NCBI GenBank assembly: GCA_965198115.1
Contig: OZ240241.1
Span: forward strand, 3,360,001 to 3,424,000
From: Candidatus Latescibacterota bacterium
GTDB taxonomy: Bacteria; Latescibacterota; UBA2968
Length of the DNA stretch: 64,000 nucleotides
Reading direction: 5' to 3'
Made by a program: the position numbers and the translations under genes. Of the stretch, positions 7,482 through 15,882 are shown piece after piece. The notes under the pieces were generated by a model. The model did no database searches. It worked only from the letters and a program-made list of their open reading frames with translations, and was not told where the DNA came from. Numbering within the stretch: position 1 is the stretch's first letter; every line of letters begins with the position of its first letter.

Positions 7482-7563
7482 TGAACCGCGCTCCATCGGC
7501 CGGTGTCCTGACAGGTGAACGCCCAGAAAACGCGCGTGTAACCACCTCTCAGGAAGGAGCGTC
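7482..7563 (+). promoter_or_regulatory. Two tandem ECF-type promoter candidates
   Basis: TGAACC-N16-TGTC (7482-7507) and TGTAACC-N16-CGTC (7537-7563), upstream of the ECF sigma gene. Both match the general AAC/CGT ECF promoter pattern. Confidence 0.5.
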
Positions 7564-7643: not shown

Positions 7644-7697
7644 CGTCGCACTTCGACGGAGTTCATCCTGAGCGCAGTCGAAGGGCTCAGTGTGACG
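7644..7697. repeat. Palindromic repeat of the CTTCGAC..GCTCAG..TGAC type; related copies at 8347..8369 and 8523..8557
   Basis: Shared CTTCGAC.N.GCTCAG core, with self-complementary arms in the 7644 and 8523 copies. Confidence 0.65.
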
Positions 7698-7757
7698 TAT
7701 CCATCCTCGGTGTAATCTGTGTGTTCTGTGGTTCCACCCCGTCTTTCAAGGACATCG

Positions 7758-8342
7758 ATGACCGACGAAGACCTCCTCACCGCCATCGCAAAGCAAGATG
7801 CTGATGCCTTCGGGGAGTTCTTCAACCGCTTCGAGCCTCAAGTGATCCGTCACCTGACGCGTATCGTCAGAGATCCGGCAACCGCCGACGATCTGACTCA
7901 AGACGTCTTTTTCCGGGTCTGGGCGCGCGCTGGGCAGTGGTCGGGGCGAGGCAGCGCGCGGAGTTGGCTGCTCACGATCGCCACAAATCTGGCCCTCAAC
8001 CACTTACGCACCGTTAAACGCCGCCGCGAGCAGCCTCTCGACCCTGGACCCGATCCTTACGCCGAAGGCGACGGGACCCACGCCCCCAGCTGGATGATCG
8101 ACGAAGCCGCCGTCGGCGCGGATGAGCAATACGAACAGACCGAGCGACGGCAGTTGCTCAACGGCCTCGTCGACGAGCTGCCCGAAGACAAGCGCGAGGT
8201 CTTACGCCTCGTCTACGACGCCGAAATGGATGTAAGGGATGTCGCCGACCACCTCGGCATCCCAGAAGGCACCGTAAAATCCCGAATGCACCACGCGCGA
8301 CGACGACTGGCCGATCGATGGCGCAACATCGAAAAACCCTGA
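7758..8342 (+). CDS. ECF (group 4 sigma-70) RNA polymerase sigma factor
   Basis: Region 2 motifs D.DAF.EFF.RF, ADDLTQDVFFRVW and SWLLTIATN; region 4 motif LP...R....L......DVA..LGIPEGTVKSRMHHAR. Confidence 0.93.
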   Translation: MTDEDLLTAIAKQDADAFGEFFNRFEPQVIRHLTRIVRDPATADDLTQDVFFRVWARAGQWSGRGSARSWLLTIATNLALNHLRTVKRRREQPLDPGPDPYAEGDGTHAPSWMIDEAAVGADEQYEQTERRQLLNGLVDELPEDKREVLRLVYDAEMDVRDVADHLGIPEGTVKSRMHHARRRLADRWRNIEKP

Positions 8343-8459
8343 ACCACCCTTCGACTACGCTCAGGACAAGCTCCGACACCAAGACACGAAGAAAACCGGA
8401 AGGAAAGGCATGAGCCCCCACTCAGCTTGCGGACATAACCCCCACCTTCTGGGTGAATC

Positions 8460-8510
8460 AGCCCACTTCAGTGGGCTTCGCTAAAGTTGCGTGGGACTTC
8501 AGTCCCACGC
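8460..8510. repeat. Pair of REP-like hairpins with TTCA loops; related hairpins at 7032..7077
   Basis: AGCCCAC-TTCA-GTGGGCT and GCGTGGGAC-TTCA-GTCCCACGC. Confidence 0.7.
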
Positions 8511-8575
8511 GGCTTGGCCGATTACCGACACTTCGACTCGCGCTCAGTGTGACGGTATGTCGGCCTTCCTGAACT

Positions 8576-11500
8576 ATGAACACTCTCAATGAGGTGCGAA
8601 TGACAATCACTCCTGCAACACCCTGGCACAACACCTCCTACCAGACCTTCATCTCGAGCACGCTGCCCGACCTGTTGGCCGATCGTGTCCCGCTCGATGG
8701 CTACAGCGTCAACCGGGTCGACGACTACAACGTCAACGTCGAACTGTCGCTCAGGACGAAGGGCGGCTCGATCGATCTGTCGTTCGCTGACGTGCCGGCC
8801 CCGGATGAACACGGCCTGTTCTTTGTGGACGGACAACAGGAGAAAAATGGCGGCTACCGCGTTGTCGTTCCGTATCCCGACGGGTTCGACCTCACAAAGG
8901 CGAACATCCTGTGCGTCGGCGAACAGTTGGCCGAATTCGTGGAGGCACGACTGGGGGATGCGCCGAACGATCTCGACTGGGATCAGAAGCTGGCGGAAGC
9001 CTGGCTGCCGGTCACCGGCTGGCTGGACACGTTCCTTCGGACCCAGCCCACGTCCCAATTTATCCAGAGCACGAACTGGCTGGACCGCACAACGCATCTT
9101 CGTCGCATCACGCTCGTCCCGATCGCCTTCGCCGAGGGTCCGTCGGAGAAGACGCACATCATACCCTCACTCCCCACGAGATCGCACTACCTGATGTCGC
9201 CCGAAGACGCGGCGGCGGGCTCGAAGCGTGGGTTGACCTGTCCCATCATCCAGCCCGAAGGCCCGAATATGGGTTGGATCTTCGAAGTCGCCCGGGGCGC
9301 GGAGATCAGGGACGGACGGCTCGTCCGCATCGAAGGGGCAGATCCCGCGGACGCGTCCCTCAACGTCGGCTGGAGCGGCTCGATGATTCCCTTCATCGAG
9401 CACACCGACTCCGCCCGCTTGCTAATGGGCGCGAATATGATGCGTCAGTGGATTGCTCCGAGGAACACGGCTGGTCTCCCGTCCGTCCAAACTGCGCAGA
9501 CCTATCCCGAAGATCTCGTCGACGCGCTCTCGAATCCACCCGGCCCGACACCCGAACCTGCGCTCGTCCAGACGGGAACGGAGCCGGATGACGCCGACTA
9601 CTGGGCGGGCTATAACCTGCTGACTGCCTTCACGATGTGGGACGGTGACACGTTCGAGGACGGCGTCGTCTTGTCCGAGTCCGCGGCGGCAAGGATGGCC
9701 TTCCCAGCCGACGTCGATCTCGGTGATAAGTTGAGCACGCGTCACGGCTTCAAGGGCGTCGTGTCCCGTATTCTACCCGACTCTGAAATGCCCGCGCTTC
9801 CCGACGGTACCGCGGTCGACACCATCATTTCGCCGACCAGTCTGATCTCGCGAGTCAACTTTGGTCAGCTGCGAGAAGCTGTGATGGGCCGCATCGCTCA
9901 CGCCGAAGGCCAGCCTGCGGTCGTGCCCGCCTACGAGGCACTGTCAATCGAAGACTTGAAGAGCCGGTTGAAAGGGGTGGGGCTGCCCGAGGATGGAATG
10001 GACCAACTGACACTCGGCGGAGAGGCGCTCCCGCACAGATCGACGGTGGGCTACGTCTACTGGGGGCGCCTCACGCATCTGTCACGGCACAAGCTGCGCG
10101 GTACGGACCACCTACTGGGGCCCGTGCTCTTCGGTGAGCGGCAATACTCAACGCTGAAAGGTCTCAAAGCCTACGCCACGATCGGCGATCTGCTACGACG
10201 CGCAACGGAAGCAGGCAACACCGTCCCGACACTGGACAACGTCACGGCCAAACTCAACGAGGCCGGCATTGTCCTCGAGCGGAATGGAGAGGAAGTCACG
10301 TTCTCGACAAACGGCACGAAAGGCTATACCCTCGCCTCGCCGGTCCCTCACCCCTGGCATCCCGAGGTCGAACTGAGGGCCGTCAGCGAAGGCGAAGGCG
10401 ATCTCTACGACGACGTCGTCGCGGCGGACGAGCGGGTGCGTCGCCTCGACGACAACGCGCCCGCCCCGCTGAAGTCGGCGGCGATCGAGCGTCTTGCCGC
10501 GGCCGTCGGCGACTATCTGGACGCATCCCTCACACCGAGCGATCTAGAAATCGACGCGCGTGTGCCCGATAGCGGCCGTGCCGTCATCGTCCCCGGTGCC
10601 GAGCTCGCACTCGATCAGATCGGTGTCCCTCGCGAAATGGCGTGGACCCTGTTCGGTGAAGACGTCGCGTCGGAGCTAGGCGAGGACGCCGTCGAGAAGC
10701 GAACGAAGGCTGCTACGTCACGTCTGGAGGAAATCGCCAACTCCGCCCATCTCCTGATCCACAAGGGCGTCCACATCACAGCCACGTCTGTGCTCGCTGC
10801 GCGGCCCGTCCTCATCGACGATCCCGTTATCCGCATCCATCCGATGCACTGCGCGCTTCTGGATGCCGACTTCGACGGCGATCAGGTCGCCGTCACGCGG
10901 CTCAAGTCAGAAGACGCCGTTCGCGAATGTGTGGAACGACTTTCCATCGCCGGCCACCTGCGTCACACACCCGACGCGCTTCGAATCCTCATCGGACGGC
11001 CGCACGGAATCAACTGGGGCTTGACCCGGCTTGCCAGAACGGCTGACGGTCGGAAGAAGATGACAGACATAGCCGGCGAAGCGATCGGTGAGGATTACGG
11101 TGGTCGCCGGTCTTATCTCGCCCTGCTCGAGCGCATCTTCGAGCGGGAAGGCGACAACGACGAGGGCTTGGCTAGAACGTTCGCCATCTACGACGGCCTG
11201 ATGCGACTCGGGCTCCAGGCGTGCAAGGAATCGGGCGTCTCCATCAACCCGTTCCTCGGTGCCTCTCTCGATCTGCCCGCGCCACCGCAATCCGACGATC
11301 TCGAATTGATGCATATATACAAGGAAGAACTCATCGCCGCGCTCAATCAGCATTCGGATCCCGATGACGGCGATGTCGGCACCTTCAACAGCTTCCGGCT
11401 CACAGGAACACGCGGCAGCGATGGGCAATACGTCCTCTACTTCGGCGCCATCGGCCACGTCGAGGGCGTCAACGTTCGTCACGGCTACATCAAAGGCCTC

Positions 11501-11740
11501 GACGTCGACGAAACCGCCGCCCTCAGCGCGAGAACAAGAGCCGCCATCGCCAGCGCCAACCGACAGATGGCCTCCTTCGACGATCGCCCGACCCTTCCCG
11601 GCCGCTCCTACGGCGTCATCGCAAGAGCGCGCAGAAGCGATCGCCCTGGCGTCGTCTTCGCACGGGCAGCCGCCAGAGGTGAAGTCGATCCCTTGGAGGA
11701 TGTTGATGCGCGGATCTTGTGTGGCTTGCCGGTGACATAG
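8576..11740 (+). CDS. Miniaturised single-chain RNA polymerase: fused RpoB-like and RpoC-like core (1054 aa)
   Basis: Beta motifs in order: SQF...TNWL..TTHLRRI, CPIIQPEGPNMG, IPFIEH.D..RLLMGANMMRQ, FEDGVVLSE, GDKLSTRHGFKGVV, MP.LPDGT.VD, SRVNFGQ, TVGYVY...L.HL. Then beta-prime motifs: LASPVPH.W, clamp helices, RV..SGRAVIVPG, HP..C...DADFDGDQ.AV, G.RGS..Q, GY.KGL and A.RGEVDPL. Confidence 0.9.
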   Translation: MNTLNEVRMTITPATPWHNTSYQTFISSTLPDLLADRVPLDGYSVNRVDDYNVNVELSLRTKGGSIDLSFADVPAPDEHGLFFVDGQQEKNGGYRVVVPYPDGFDLTKANILCVGEQLAEFVEARLGDAPNDLDWDQKLAEAWLPVTGWLDTFLRTQPTSQFIQSTNWLDRTTHLRRITLVPIAFAEGPSEKTHIIPSLPTRSHYLMSPEDAAAGSKRGLTCPIIQPEGPNMGWIFEVARGAEIRDGRLVRIEGADPADASLNVGWSGSMIPFIEHTDSARLLMGANMMRQWIAPRNTAGLPSVQTAQTYPEDLVDALSNPPGPTPEPALVQTGTEPDDADYWAGYNLLTAFTMWDGDTFEDGVVLSESAAARMAFPADVDLGDKLSTRHGFKGVVSRILPDSEMPALPDGTAVDTIISPTSLISRVNFGQLREAVMGRIAHAEGQPAVVPAYEALSIEDLKSRLKGVGLPEDGMDQLTLGGEALPHRSTVGYVYWGRLTHLSRHKLRGTDHLLGPVLFGERQYSTLKGLKAYATIGDLLRRATEAGNTVPTLDNVTAKLNEAGIVLERNGEEVTFSTNGTKGYTLASPVPHPWHPEVELRAVSEGEGDLYDDVVAADERVRRLDDNAPAPLKSAAIERLAAAVGDYLDASLTPSDLEIDARVPDSGRAVIVPGAELALDQIGVPREMAWTLFGEDVASELGEDAVEKRTKAATSRLEEIANSAHLLIHKGVHITATSVLAARPVLIDDPVIRIHPMHCALLDADFDGDQVAVTRLKSEDAVRECVERLSIAGHLRHTPDALRILIGRPHGINWGLTRLARTADGRKKMTDIAGEAIGEDYGGRRSYLALLERIFEREGDNDEGLARTFAIYDGLMRLGLQACKESGVSINPFLGASLDLPAPPQSDDLELMHIYKEELIAALNQHSDPDDGDVGTFNSFRLTGTRGSDGQYVLYFGAIGHVEGVNVRHGYIKGLDVDETAALSARTRAAIASANRQMASFDDRPTLPGRSYGVIARARRSDRPGVVFARAAARGEVDPLEDVDARILCGLPVT

Positions 11741-11825
11741 TCATCTGACCGACATACACGTCAAAGCCGCGGGTTGGTCGAGAGGACCGATCCGCGGCTT
11801 TTATTATCAGAAAGAAGTCGCCTGC

Positions 11826-11999
11826 TTGTCATTTCGACACGGTGTCACCCGCGACCAGGAAACACACCATCGCGATCTGCGGCGACCCGTGGAGAAATTC
11901 CTGCGCCTGGATGCAAGAGAGCCTGTCACGTTGTCCCTTCCCGCAGGGATCTCTCACCCGTGGCGAGGGCCGAGGCTCAAATCGGGTTCGAGATGACAA
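11826..11999. repeat. Long nested imperfect hairpin element
   Basis: Outer arms TTGTCATTTCGA and TCGAGATGACAA; inner arms GAGAAATTCCTGCG and CGCAGGGATCTCTC. Confidence 0.65.
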
Positions 12000-12518
12000 A
12001 CTAGATGCGCGATCTGGATCCCACACGTCGGTTCACCAAGCTGCTGGGGAAGACTACCCACTCGACGCCTCTTCGCCCGGTGCCCTCGGTGGTAGGTTTT
12101 CAGTGTATTCTGTGTGCTCTGTGGTTCCCTCTCTCACTGGGCAGGCTCACCCAAATCCCGCGGAGTCCTAGGCCAATGGAACTTCTCCTCCCCCGTCAGC
12201 AGCGCCCGATGCTCTTCGGATATGGTCTTCACGAAGTCGGGATCGGGATCGTACCGGTTCCACGCCTGGAACATCGTGGGCATATACCCACCCAGAATGA
12301 GAAGGCGTTCCCTGTTCGACCGGATGATGCCCGCCGAATGCATCAGGGATTCGTAGAAGAGTAGCGTCGAGCCCGCCGGAGCTTCGACCTGATGGATCAT
12401 AGAAGGATCTTCCATTGCCGCATCCACGATCGCATCACGTGAAACGTCGGTCCCCACCTTGTGCGTCCCTGCGATGACCGTCGTCCCGCCGTCATCCGGC
12501 CCTAGATCCGTCAGATTA

Positions 12519-13812
12519 GGGTTTGCCACGAAATAAGTGCTGCACTTTTCAAGGTAATGATCTTACGCTCGGAGTGTGGACGTCGAAACTCTCCGAACGA
12601 AGTATGAAGCCTTGGCTCCGGTGCTGACGGAACGCACGCGTCGTCTGTGGGCCGCCACGGAAGCCGAAGCGTTGGGTCACGGTGGGATCGCGATTGTGGC
12701 TCTGGCGACAGGAATGTCCAGAGAGCGGATCTTTCGTGGCATTCAGGAGTTGAGGTCGGACGAACCTTTGGACCCGGCTCGCATCCGGCGTCCAGGCGGC
12801 GGTCGTAAGCGGAAGGCCGACACGGACCCGACGCTGTGGCAGGACCTGAATGATCTGGTCGAGCCAACGACTGCGGGGTCGCCTGACGACAATCCTCTGA
12901 GATGGACATCGAAGAGCACTCGCAAACTGGCCGCCGAGTTGCAAGCGATGGGGCATTCGGTGAGCCCCAGGATCGTTGCCAATCTCCTGCACGAACACGA
13001 TTACACGCTGCAGGCGAATCGGAAGACAAGGGAGGGATCTGCACACCCGGATCGGGACGCTCAGTTCGTTTACCTCGATGATCGGATTAGCCAGCAGCAG
13101 CAGCAGGGCCTTCCCGTTATCTCGGTGGACACCAAGAAGAAAGAGTTGATCGGCGACTTCAAGAATCCTGGCCGAGAATGGCGACCCAAGGGAGACCCGG
13201 AGCGTGTGAAGGTACACGATTTCATAGTGCCTGCTCAGGGCAAGGCGATCCCTTATGGAGTGTATGATCTGAGCCGTGATGAAGGCTGGGTAAGTGTCGG
13301 TATCGATCACGACACGGCCAGCTTCGCCGTGAATGCGATCCGAAGTTGGTGGAAGAACATGGGACGGCCCGCCTACGGCACTTCGACGCATCTGCTAATC
13401 ACGGCGGACGCAGGCGGCAGCAACGGCGCCAAGACGCGGCTGTGGAAGTGGGAGCTGCAGCGCTTTGCGAATCGCACTGGCCTGACGATCACCGTATGCC
13501 ACTACCCTCCTGGCACTAGTAAGTGGAACAAGATCGAACATCGCCTGTTCTCCTTCATCGCTATGAACTGGCGAGGCAAGCCCCTGGTCAGCCTGGCTGC
13601 AACCGTGAATCTCATTGCCGGAACGACCACTCAAGCCGGTCTCCGAGTACGCTCCGAGATCGACAAGCGACCCTACCCTAACGGGGTCAAGGTGACCGAT
13701 GAACAGATGACCCAAATCGATCTCACTCCGCACGATTTCCACGGCGACTGGAACTACACGATCCGGCCAATGGCTCAACATTGAGATCGACCGTTTATTT
13801 ATTCGCGAACCC
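12519..13812 (+). mobile_element. ISAzo13-family IS
   Basis: Imperfect ends GGGTTTGC..AAATAA and TTATTTATTCGCGAACCC; 3-bp duplication TTA (12516-12518, 13813-13815). Confidence 0.88.
12576..13784 (+). CDS. ISAzo13-family transposase
   Basis: ISVDTKKKELIG, ADAGGSNG, PPGTSKWNKIEHRLFS and FHGDWNYTI motifs. Confidence 0.95.
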   Translation: MDVETLRTKYEALAPVLTERTRRLWAATEAEALGHGGIAIVALATGMSRERIFRGIQELRSDEPLDPARIRRPGGGRKRKADTDPTLWQDLNDLVEPTTAGSPDDNPLRWTSKSTRKLAAELQAMGHSVSPRIVANLLHEHDYTLQANRKTREGSAHPDRDAQFVYLDDRISQQQQQGLPVISVDTKKKELIGDFKNPGREWRPKGDPERVKVHDFIVPAQGKAIPYGVYDLSRDEGWVSVGIDHDTASFAVNAIRSWWKNMGRPAYGTSTHLLITADAGGSNGAKTRLWKWELQRFANRTGLTITVCHYPPGTSKWNKIEHRLFSFIAMNWRGKPLVSLAATVNLIAGTTTQAGLRVRSEIDKRPYPNGVKVTDEQMTQIDLTPHDFHGDWNYTIRPMAQH

Positions 13813-14462
13813 TTAGTCAGCGCCTTGACAAACGAGAAGTGGTAGAGACCCCGTTCCATATGACTGTATGCCGGGTTGATTCCACGATGGAAGCCAAACC
13901 GCTCCCCACCATCGGCCACTGGCCGGCGTATGTGGGCATCCGATTGCTGGAGCCGGGCCGGGCCACCGATGATTTCCTCTGCCATCCCGACAATGAACGG
14001 GCTCGTCAGGTAATCGAAAAAACACTGTGCCAGGTGCGGCAGGTTATCGATCCGGAAGAACTCCTCCGTCGTACTCGTGTTGAAGCAGTTCGGCCCGGGC
14101 ATTTCTCCGTTCCGGCGAAACTGATCCTCTATCTCATACAGCGTCTCCTTCAGCACATCGATCTCGTCCTGCGACAACACCTGTTCGACAATGACGTACC
14201 CGTAGATCTCGATGTGCAATCGCTGAGCGGGCGTCAGCGCGGGAAACGACTTTGCTTTCGGTTCTGCGGTCATTGATTCCGATCCCTTGGTTCCGTGGAC
14301 GTCACAGTGATGCCCATATGATAGGCCGGGCAGCGGCCAAGCCATCGCTCCTCTCACTGCAGTTCCGTAGGAATTCACACTACGATGGTGGTGCGAATGC
14401 GTCGGCCACCGAGACGAGGGACTCAAGCCCACCGCTTGGCCGCAAAAGTCGGGTCGAAAAAT

Positions 14463-15882
14463 GGCTCTATCCGGGTTTCTCAACGGTGAAACTATAGAAT
14501 GACAAGGTCATAGATCGTTCCCTACGCTTGGTTGTGTGTGTAGGACAATCAAAGCGAAGGGGGTGCGACCTATGACCGGGAGCAGATTACTATCGAAACT
14601 GCTGAGATTCAAGGGGTTCCGTGTTGTCAGCTGGTGGTTTGAGGGGAGAAGCTGTTTCGTCATCGCCGTAAAGCCACATAAGAATGGTTGTTGTTGTCCG
14701 GAGTGCGGCCGTCGAGGTAAAATCGTCCGCACAATGCCCCATCCGCGTCGGTGGCGTGACATTCCGGTGTGCGGGTGGAGGGTCTGGCTTCTCTACCATC
14801 CTCGGGAGATTCGGTGTCCTACCCACGGTCGTGTGGTCGAGGAGATTCCGTGGGCGGAGCGGTTCTCTCGGGTGACGTATCGCTTCGAGTATGCCATGCT
14901 GCGCTACTGCCAGACCATGACGCAGAAGGCGGCGTCCGAGTTACTGCGCATCTCTGCCTCGACGCTGTCGGATCTCCGTCACCGATCCATCACGCGGCTT
15001 CGTGAAGGTCATCGTATCCGAGGGCTCAAAACCATCGGGATCGACGAGATCTCCTACGCCAAGCGTCACAGGTACGCCACGCTCGTTTACGATCTGGACC
15101 GCTCCTGCGTGGTGTGGGTTGGCCGCGGCAGGGCGCGTAAAACGATCGATCGGTTCTTCACAGAGGCTCTCAGTCCCTACCGGAGATCCAAGATCGAGTG
15201 GGCCTGCTGCGACATGAGCGAAGCTTACATCGGAGCCATCCAGGAACACTGTCCGAATGCCAAGCTGGTCCTCGATCGCTTTCACATCGTCAAGGCTCTC
15301 AATGCCGCCGTTGACGAGGTCCGTAAGGACCAGTGGCGTAAAGCTGCCCCGGATGAGCGCAAAGCCATGAAGGGCCTCCGATGGCTCCTCTACCGGCACT
15401 CAGCGACACGCTCCAGAGGGGATACTCGGACACTCAAAGCACTGGAGAAGGCGAACTACCGAATCTATAGAGCCTGGAGACTCAAGGACGAGTTCGAGCA
15501 GTTCTGGGAATACAAAGCGCCCTGGGCTGCCGAACGCTTCCTGAAATGCTGGACGACGTCCGCACTCAGAAGTCGACGTGAACCCCTGCGAAAGTTCGTC
15601 AGGACCCTGCGACAGCACTTCTTCGGCGTCCTCGCATTCGTGAACACGCGTCTTACCAACGCCATCGCCGAAGGCCTCAACCGAATCGTCCAAATCGTCA
15701 AGAACCGAGCCAGCGGATTCCGCACACTCGACGCATTCAACGATATGATCTTCCTTACCGTCGGAGACATAAACATCCCTGAGCAGATTCCGAAGAGGTT
15801 CCGCACACGCTAACCGCGCCCCCATGCCAGGAACCACGGCACCTTCACCCACTTCATCTCGTTGAGAGATCCGGATATAGCC
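14463..15882 (+). mobile_element. ISL3-family IS, copy 2 (1420 bp)
   Basis: Near-identical inverted copy of 2027..3446; 8-bp duplication CGAAAAAT (14455-14462, 15883-15890). Confidence 0.93.
14536..15813 (+). CDS. ISL3-family transposase
   Basis: Differs from copy 1 at about 4 amino acids. Confidence 0.93.
   Translation: MCRTIKAKGVRPMTGSRLLSKLLRFKGFRVVSWWFEGRSCFVIAVKPHKNGCCCPECGRRGKIVRTMPHPRRWRDIPVCGWRVWLLYHPREIRCPTHGRVVEEIPWAERFSRVTYRFEYAMLRYCQTMTQKAASELLRISASTLSDLRHRSITRLREGHRIRGLKTIGIDEISYAKRHRYATLVYDLDRSCVVWVGRGRARKTIDRFFTEALSPYRRSKIEWACCDMSEAYIGAIQEHCPNAKLVLDRFHIVKALNAAVDEVRKDQWRKAAPDERKAMKGLRWLLYRHSATRSRGDTRTLKALEKANYRIYRAWRLKDEFEQFWEYKAPWAAERFLKCWTTSALRSRREPLRKFVRTLRQHFFGVLAFVNTRLTNAIAEGLNRIVQIVKNRASGFRTLDAFNDMIFLTVGDINIPEQIPKRFRTR

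Follow-up and report, generated by a model that had tools for sequence, protein, structure and literature searches.

A single-chain mini RNA polymerase without a trigger loop beside an ECF sigma factor gene in a Latescibacterota genome

Gene locus and genome context

Cellular RNA polymerases are considered unable to do without the trigger loop, the base of which persists even in divergent phage enzymes. What, then, is the role of a bacterial polymerase homolog that carries the catalytic aspartates and ends 80 residues after the start of the bridge helix? The question was raised by one gene in a 64,000-nucleotide stretch of contig OZ240241.1 from a Candidatus Latescibacterota bacterium (the window), which is followed by a terminator-like structure:

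8600..11740, plus strand: single-chain mini beta-beta' RNA polymerase homolog (mini-RNAP), 1046 aa (AlphaFold pLDDT 90.8, pTM 0.90)
11763..11802, plus strand: terminator-like hairpin and then a T run, found by eye, unlisted by the scan and also present in the ortholog L068

Read from the ATG at 8576, the open reading frame encodes 1054 aa, with the stop at 11738-11740; two orthologs use the ATG equivalent to 8600, which gives the 1046-aa form. An ECF sigma gene precedes it, and the same genome contains canonical rpoBC and a second mini-RNAP paralog, located at C1:1427405-1430614. Insertion sequences were found on the flanks of the region. A contig of public run X1, possibly the source sample itself, spans 8527-11900 with 0 differences. 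None of the public sequencing runs was listed as an RNA run for this locus.

Identity with bacterial RNAP subunits was about 25-30% over the aligned core, and the beta half aligned to RNAP beta/Rpb2 with Z of 28-31 and rmsd of 2.5-3.0 A. The protein contains two double-psi beta-barrels with the DxDGD and basic lysine motifs and belongs to the two-barrel superfamily, with NCBIfam scores far under the cut-offs (136 vs 801 and 59 vs 963 bits). None of the matching records in the phage (29) and plasmid (67) collections reached 80% query coverage. Among 65 mini-RNAP loci no third gene was conserved across phyla, common neighbours being found only among close relatives, and the neighbourhoods held no conserved replication genes and no effector gene. 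Our literature searches revealed no paper describing the family, which the survey of odd bacterial RNAPs by Iyer and Aravind (2012) could mention, and the supplement of the ECF reclassification gave no match for polymerase terms. The family counts below refer to representative sets that differ by feature: 132 for the spacer, 129 for the sugar selectors and catalytic triad, 117 for the rudder and 75 for the beta residues.

Loss of the trigger loop

The end of the protein is composed of three parts:

11495..11581, plus strand: bridge helix starting with GLDVDE, corresponding to E. coli beta' 766 to ~795 and shorter by about 10 residues (profile match, AlphaFold model and structural alignment)
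11582..11650, plus strand: short loop and 7-residue helix replacing beta' 796-1329, with trigger loop, shelf and jaw deleted (alignments, model)
11651..11725, plus strand: C-terminal block equal to beta' 1330-1354, the helix after switch 1 together with switch 5 (window ranking; hhalign E 0.043)

A preliminary description had noticed about 80 residues after the bridge-helix start, leading to a beta' C-terminal motif; exactly 80 were counted from the GLDVDE glycine at 11495. Residues 1026-1050 ranked first of 1383 windows against E. coli beta' 1330-1354 (z 5.8), and the host beta' also gave rank 1. The absence of the trigger loop, claimed in the same description, extends to the whole family. 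The spacer from bridge helix to C-terminus has 27-62 residues in 132/132 representatives versus 548 in E. coli, and the GEPGTQ and MRTFH motifs, with the trigger-loop residues Q929, M932, R933 and H936, were found in none of the 132. The loss is a family-wide trait and not lineage-specific.

In the AlphaFold model the region after the bridge consists of a single helix, a loop of 11 residues and three short helices, the last with pLDDT of 54-66; the model (pLDDT 90.8) appears to leave no space for a catalytic loop and shows no trigger-loop equivalent. None of 50 structural alignments of the truncated model stopped in the trigger-loop region (rmsd 11-13 A); 26 ended at 787-796, seven at 806-809 and 17 at position 1324 or beyond. 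Comparison with E. coli beta' 895-945 by hhalign gave no match. A profile of the C-terminal 44 residues detected no RNAP chain among PDB sequences up to E 10, and the 89-residue profile matched the bridge helix in nine RNAP chains (E 0.35-1.5). Pfam Rpb1_5 matched 1/38 family members (E 0.26). By sequence, residues 1014-1025 were more like trigger helix 2 at its end (z 4.1, rank 1/1396) and trigger helix 1 at its base (z 3.2, rank 6) than like switch 1 (z 0.8), and they may be a static trigger-helix remnant. For a trigger-loop subunit acting in trans, a genome-wide PF04998 search at E up to 1 returned a single match, the canonical rpoC, in a search that a very diverged subunit could escape. 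Two arginines peculiar to the family are almost invariant near the C-terminus, R1017 in 128/132 and R1046 in 126/132 representatives.

Other deleted and retained parts

9416..10078, plus strand: beta-side active-site residues kept, equivalents of R678, E813/D814, K1065, K1073, R1106 and H1237 (alignments)
10400..10528, plus strand: clamp helices retained (profile match to E. coli beta' 267-316)
10529..10579, plus strand: rudder missing together with the first half of switch 2 (38 residues reduced to 10 in 113/113 homologs and in 93/117 representatives)

The flap is deleted, 16 residues at 9674-9724 standing for about 244, and the beta2 lobe is missing. Lid and clamp head are absent upstream of the clamp helices, residue 585 aligning with beta' 106 and residue 606 with beta' 264. 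The funnel motif is retained (profile match), as are the clamp helices, on which sigma-2 docks in canonical RNAP. The catalytic aspartates are almost invariant among 129 representatives (D460 in 127, D462 in 127, D464 in 126), and the beta residues are kept in most of the 75 (R678 in 74, K1065 in 67, K1073 in 70, R1106 in 74, H1237 in 67). This copy lacks 8/60 conserved beta' positions (family median 4), and 3/103 conserved beta positions are changed. Rudder and switch 2 had both been described as deleted; this holds for the rudder, but switch 2 is only half lost, K334, R337 and R339 having gone with the rudder and R346 and R352 being kept. Substitutions of R339 give more abortive RNA and destabilised elongation complexes (PMC2943606, in its available section).

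Sugar-selecting residues

10760..10780, plus strand: selectivity loop reading HKGVHIT, with K for R425, V for P427 and H for T428 (alignment)
10862..10882, plus strand: catalytic motif reading DADFDGD, with D for N458 and the three Mg-binding aspartates preserved (alignment)

Both motifs are present as previously described, and K425, V427 and D458 are shared by two orthologs. Sequencing error was rejected as their source, because the residues recur in the orthologs and the X1 contig shows no difference. The loss of P427, which is V732 here, had been overlooked; this proline of the R-x-P loop is found in 120/129 representatives. The substitutions are not conserved among homologs in general: R425 was found in 115 of the 129, N458 in 84 and both in 78, and the second paralog in the same genome keeps the RxP and NADFDGD motifs. 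The gene sits in a four-member clade with R425, P427 and N458 jointly lost in 4/4; the changes are confined to this small branch and are not family-wide. On a 216-tip tree N458 changed 32 times and R425 11 times. Histidine at the T428 position (H733) occurs in 3/238 family sequences, each in this clade, the fourth member having arginine. The clade copies evolve under purifying selection, with dN/dS of 0.089-0.147 in three pairwise comparisons inside the clade and about 0.09 against L068 in every region tested; pseudogene status was rejected on this ground.

The change of R425 to lysine is conservative but tested. In E. coli, R425K lowered selectivity by a factor of 17 at the binding step and of 25 at incorporation, closure of the trigger loop was worth ~10^4-fold, and loss of R425 relaxed dNTP discrimination but did not reverse selectivity (PMC7862312, available part). 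Since most homologs keep R425 and N458, the earlier suggestion of dNTP use does not hold as the purpose of the whole family; judged from the residues, it may apply to the four-member clade alone.

ECF sigma factor and promoter

7482..7507, plus strand: conserved putative ECF promoter TGAAC-N15-GGTGTC (strict pattern in 29/41 loci)
7514..7517, plus strand: predicted transcript +1..+4, conserved purine-G-T-purine (start placed from the spacing)
7758..8342, plus strand: ECF sigma factor with long acidic linker (Pfam Sigma70_r2 and r4_2; alignment)

The sigma gene lies upstream of the polymerase in 48/49 loci with room for it, at most 1300 nt away in 38, and no anti-sigma gene was seen in the cassette. 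In a genome-wide ranking of 15,845 candidate sites, the cassette promoter was rank 1 and the site of the paralog rank 2. Only these two putative promoters, scoring 27.7 and 26.5, are clearly above the null (next site 19.6, null top 21.6), and 19 strict sites in the genome versus 20.7 expected gave no sign of a wider regulon. Among 14 distinct sites at least 36 nt before the sigma gene, several of which overlap the ribosome-binding site, T was found at +3 in 14/14 and G at +2 in 12/14; the conserved G can be an ordinary core-recognition element. A complex prediction of sigma with mini-RNAP, made without folded controls, scored 0.26 against a mark of 0.32. In the canonical holoenzyme the flap positions sigma-4 (PMC7824862, excerpted text). 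Although there is no flap here, the -35 element is conserved together with its spacing, and the promoter may therefore be used by the host core alone.

Proposed function and alternative explanations

We tentatively favour, at somewhat short of an even chance, a catalytically equipped single-chain RNAP without trigger loop that likely binds the co-encoded ECF sigma, is predicted to make only very short transcripts from the one putative promoter of that sigma, and in this clade likely has a relaxed choice between ribose and deoxyribose. The 4-kb operon would be transcribed by the host core with the ECF sigma; sigma-2 would then dock onto the clamp helices of the mini enzyme and the -10 element would be opened. 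With the active site permanently open, nucleotide addition would be slow and unproofread, and without grips on downstream DNA and hybrid, products of 2-6 nt starting purine-G-U would be released with no escape. By holding sigma and promoter, the mini enzyme could damp its own positive feedback loop. K425/V427/D458 would leave dNTP rejection only few-fold in the clade, with mostly ribo products at cellular pools and dNMPs possible. Slow, non-processive synthesis of short oligonucleotides had been suggested before, and it fits because trigger loop, rudder, lid, clamp head, flap and beta2 lobe are gone and the catalytic residues are conserved. YonO, without trigger-loop homology, counts against the short-RNA reading, being fast and highly processive (PMC5467207, available part).

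The same precedent speaks for an unlikely alternative, a processive private polymerase in which a rigid active site offsets the loss of the trigger loop and which transcribes its own operon or other genes at lower fidelity. The RNAP of yeast virus-like elements functions without lid and rudder, and the invariant R1017 and R1046 could serve as new DNA contacts. Yet in that yeast enzyme the trigger helices are supplied by another subunit (PMC6211774, available part), and no such subunit was found in this genome; all structures compared in the accessible portion of 10.1101/2022.12.01.518664 retain bridge helix and N-terminal trigger loop; and no regulon extends past the cassette promoter. We give equally little weight to a protein acting mainly as an anti-sigma decoy, which would sequester the ECF sigma on its clamp helices or occupy the promoter, the active site sensing nucleotides or holding nucleic acid instead of yielding a useful product. 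The cassette of a self-targeting sigma with no third gene conserved across phyla, the retained clamp helices and the drift at the sugar-selecting positions agree with it, but a decoy would need far less than ~1000 conserved residues and a whole two-metal site. Rather less likely still, a sigma-programmed oligonucleotide synthetase, pared down from a cellular-type polymerase, might have abortive initiation as its purpose, its product being a defined pppR-G-U oligomer that serves as a signal or a primer; the clade pocket K425/V427/H428/D458 would then be rebuilt for deoxynucleotides, an RNA-to-DNA step parallel to PolD.

We consider very unlikely a nucleotidyltransferase that copies RNA or needs no template, or a synthetase of signal nucleotides, working independently of the promoter. 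Such an enzyme would agree with the lost clamps on double-stranded DNA and with the lost switch 2 K334 (yeast K332), a residue common to DNA-dependent two-barrel enzymes and missing from RdRPs (PMC2919709, available part), but the funnel motif and R346/R352 are still present, the linkage to a DNA-promoter sigma factor is close, and the neighbourhood has no effector gene. RNA-template use, also proposed earlier, found no support in any result. It is highly improbable that the clade switched to deoxynucleotides, making short DNA or mixed primers with H733 as a PolD-like steric gate. The joint loss of R425, P427 and N458 in all four members and the histidine exclusive to the clade point that way, and in PolD the corresponding loop carries a steric-gate His within a PHT motif (PMC7708050, excerpted text); against it stand the arginine of the fourth member, R425 and N458 mostly kept across the family, the lack of conserved replication neighbours, and the relaxed but unreversed selectivity after R425 loss (PMC7862312, available part). 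Hardly credible is a decaying duplicate with the substitutions as neutral damage: the excess of lost beta' positions over the family median, the more typical second paralog and the insertion sequences on both sides would suit it, but dN/dS is low throughout, both orthologs retain the sigma gene and L069 the promoter, and the conserved beta positions are hardly changed.

A widespread and conserved bacterial derivative without trigger loop is a natural minimal enzyme, one chain of 1046 residues, which lets the two-barrel core be tested alone. Members of the family also vary naturally in their sugar-selecting residues (R/N, R/D, S/E, K/D), and this one genome contains two of the states, so RNA-versus-DNA selectivity is directly testable.

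Comparison with known systems

With bacterial RpoB/RpoC and ECF sigma, mini-RNAP shares homology, fold, catalytic triad, basic motif, bridge helix, funnel and clamp helices; it differs as one chain of ~40% of the joint length, without trigger loop, rudder, lid, clamp head, flap, beta2 lobe and jaw. YonO of prophage SPbeta is likewise a two-barrel single chain of ~100 kDa with no trigger-loop homology (PMC5467207, as far as its available part goes), but has few residues in common with cellular RNAP, whereas mini-RNAP is extensively homologous to beta and beta', is sigma-linked, and has no full-length match in the phage or plasmid collections. The Kluyveromyces virus-like-element pair K2ORF6p and K2ORF7p is also a pruned beta-beta' fusion without lid and rudder; there K2ORF7p brings the C-terminal beta' regions in trans (PMC6211774, available part), while mini-RNAP carries the extreme C-terminal block in cis, and the genome yielded no second subunit.

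QDE-1 and P23-45 gp64/gp96 have a static trigger-helix remnant, an N-terminal trigger helix packed against the bridge helix. Mini-RNAP may have a similar remnant: 0/50 alignments end in that region, at rmsd of 11-13 A, and there is weak sequence likeness to both trigger-helix ends. The E. coli beta' mutants R425K, N458S and R339 concern the same positions, R425K being the identical change; as described in the available text they are single changes in an enzyme having its trigger loop, and mini-RNAP combines K425, V427 and D458. Archaeal PolD also lacks the RxP arginine and has a His on the selectivity loop (PMC7708050, excerpted text), but mini-RNAP is RNAP-derived, shows none of the other PolD features, and reads VHI, with the His in only 3/4 of its clade.

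Cassette and conserved motifs

We found a cassette of an ECF sigma gene and a single-chain RNA polymerase homolog (mini polymerase) in the window:

7482-7507, putative ECF promoter TGAAC-N15-GGTGTC, strict pattern before the sigma gene
7758-8342, ECF sigma gene, upstream of the mini polymerase
8576-11740, mini polymerase open reading frame, with start ATG 8600 favoured by orthologs

The protein is a fused and pruned beta-beta' chain. Counting residues from 8576, the selectivity-loop motif HKGVHIT lies at 729-735, the catalytic motif DADFDGD at 763-769, and the bridge-helix start GLDVDE at 974 with 80 residues remaining after it, all as the preliminary description had read them. A public-run contig spanning 8527-11900 showed 0 differences to the window, and this run may be the source sample. 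K425, V427 and D458 (E. coli beta' numbering) were also present in two metagenome orthologs. RNAP elements are given their usual names and E. coli boundaries, and residue identities were checked against the E. coli sequence.

Host genome and family distribution

Canonical rpoB and rpoC genes were also present in the genome, and its rpoC encoded NRAPTLH, NADFDGD and the trigger loop. A second mini cassette (locus L067, G000:C1:1427405-1431231, minus strand) encoded a polymerase 38% identical to the query, which kept YRAP, NADFDGD and canonical R425, P427 and N458; its promoter spacer was 14 nt and its sigma 52% identical to that of the window.

The mini polymerase family is widespread. In the search 283 proteins passed. 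The listing comprised the best 120, and the alignment 113 full-length sequences (query included); 139 clusters were obtained at 50% identity with E below 1e-30. Named loci came from Latescibacterota, Chloroflexota, Planctomycetota, Armatimonadota, Kiritimatiellota and Spirochaetales records, and 30 of 60 relatives examined had a match. In 48 of the 49 loci with room, the sigma gene preceded the polymerase gene on the same strand, at 1300 nt or less in 38. Among close relatives (L034, L036, L038, L039, L041-L044 and L046), 1-2 kb of other DNA separated the two genes. The long, acidic sigma linker (8060-8110) carries a conserved P-x-W-M-I-D motif and could substitute for a deleted polymerase element. 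Around the cassette were several PhyH genes and transposases that included ISL3 and Mutator-type ones; one PhyH-family dioxygenase gene was split by an ISAzo13-family transposase (12134-14483). No description of the family was found in the available texts of the literature searched, which did not cover Iyer and Aravind 2012.

Trigger loop and other deleted parts

The supposed absence of the trigger loop was borne out. The spacer between L783 and V1331, 548 residues in E. coli, was 34-47 residues in all 113 aligned members and 27-62 in all 132 representatives covering both ends (150 listed). In the full AlphaFold model (pLDDT 90.8, pTM 0.90) the bridge helix is 26 residues long and is followed by an 11-residue loop and three short helices. 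Residues 1026-1050 corresponded to beta' 1330-1354, rank 1 in both E. coli and host beta', while 1014-1025 were ambiguous by sequence (trigger helix 2 end, z 4.1; trigger helix 1 base, z 3.2; switch 1, z 0.8). The beta' half, folded to G1025, was therefore aligned against solved structures as a test of the post-bridge helix. The last aligned position was 787-796 in 26 of 50 rows, 806-809 in 7 and at least 1324 in 17, and none ended inside the trigger-loop region. Because rmsd was 11-13 A and the last helix low-confidence, residues 1014-1025 may still be a static trigger-helix remnant. The catalytic part (Q929-H936) is without counterpart under any reading. Only rpoC matched PF04998 in the genome, so no K2ORF7p-like subunit was found.

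The rudder and switch 2 had also been described as apparently deleted. This held for the rudder and, in switch 2, for the first half (together 10 residues in place of 38), but R346 and R352 were kept. In the structural alignment of the folded model, residues 585 and 606 aligned to beta' 106 and 264, so the clamp head and lid have been lost. Of 64 full-length representatives, 58 had a flap of 16 residues; in place of the beta2-lobe region there were about 48. The clamp helices, funnel and bridge helix were retained, and the beta-side active-site residues conserved.

Sugar-selecting residues

Substitution of the ribose-selecting residues was true of the query, its small subclade and the orthologs but not of the family as a whole: among 129 representatives covering the site, R425 was kept in 115, P427 in 120 and N458 in 84 (D in 28, E in 8, Q in 4), with R425 and N458 together in 78. 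By parsimony on the 216-tip tree, the midpoint root had R at 425 and N at 458, and these positions changed 11 and 32 times, respectively. Of 56 sequences without R425, 51 had an acid at 458, a pairing that is not independent support because most belong to one 48-member clade. The query is nested there in a subclade of four members (support 1.0), each with K425/V427/D458, and the larger part of the clade carries S425/E458. In a 40-member group (P0021, P0019, P0010 and relatives), S425 (G in one member) was followed by an insertion and combined with E458, and beta K1065R was frequent; this is a larger remodelling of the sugar pocket, the second beside that of the K/V/D subclade. Five sequences of the P0068 group had NFDGD, a PolD-like loss of the first catalytic aspartate.

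Three pairs of the K/V/D subclade gave dN/dS of 0.089, 0.147 and 0.135, and the barrel region against ortholog L068 gave 0.086, values that are rough because dS is near 1.1-1.4.

According to the available text of PMC7862312, the preference of wild-type E. coli polymerase for GTP is about 60-fold in the binding step and 50-fold in the incorporation step; R425K lowers these 17-fold and 25-fold, respectively, and N458S under 5-fold. By arithmetic on these values about 7-fold selectivity remains, and NTP pools are >10-fold above dNTP pools. The choice of ribose over deoxyribose would thus be relaxed, not reversed. A switch to DNA synthesis is considered very unlikely. The R-x-P loop also positions the NTP in QDE-1 (PMC9508822, available text). 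His at the T428 position occurred in 3 of 238 family sequences, all of the K/V/D subclade. PolD has a steric-gate His on the equivalent loop (PMC7708050, available text), a parallel that is a lead only, since the fourth member has Arg.

Promoter

In 29 of 41 loci the strict pattern TGAAC-N15-GGTGTC stood ahead of the sigma gene. With a matrix of 31 sites, leaving out the genome's own two but including L069 from a close ortholog, the cassette sites ranked 1 and 2 among 15,845 genome candidates, and the next score was within the null. Six bases past the -10 element we found purine-G-T-purine, where we infer the transcription start site. Of the 33 distinct sites in total, 23 had its T; of the 14 that lie 36 nt or more from the sigma gene, all 14 had the T and 12 the G. 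Some of the 14 overlap a ribosome-binding site; the seven without overlap by eye (L017, L018, L024, L025, L069, L091 and the window) all had G-T-purine.

Directly behind this promoter lies another, weaker match of the same kind (TGAAC, 16 nt, CGTGTA; 7513-7541). The sigma leader is about 240 nt in the window, about 195 nt in L069 and about 25 nt in most loci. Short repeats, of which the contigs of the public run contain many copies, were found in this leader (7649-7698) and between the sigma and polymerase genes (8339-8560).

Possible mechanism

Considering the conserved chemistry, the lost processivity parts and the one target promoter, we tentatively predict a sigma-directed enzyme that initiates and then aborts. 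In the available texts, switch 2 R339 mutants show more abortion and less stable complexes (PMC2943606), and trigger-loop closure is worth about 10^4-fold (PMC7862312).

Against this reading, the mini enzyme lacks the flap, and its recognition of the -35 element is therefore doubtful. The putative promoter may be for the host core only and the mini polymerase may act as the missing anti-sigma, which we consider unlikely. RNA-templated or signal synthesis appears quite improbable. The initiate-and-abort reading must also be weighed against a processive private polymerase, about as unlikely as the anti-sigma role: YonO is processive though without trigger-loop homology (PMC5467207, available text), which counts against abortive synthesis.
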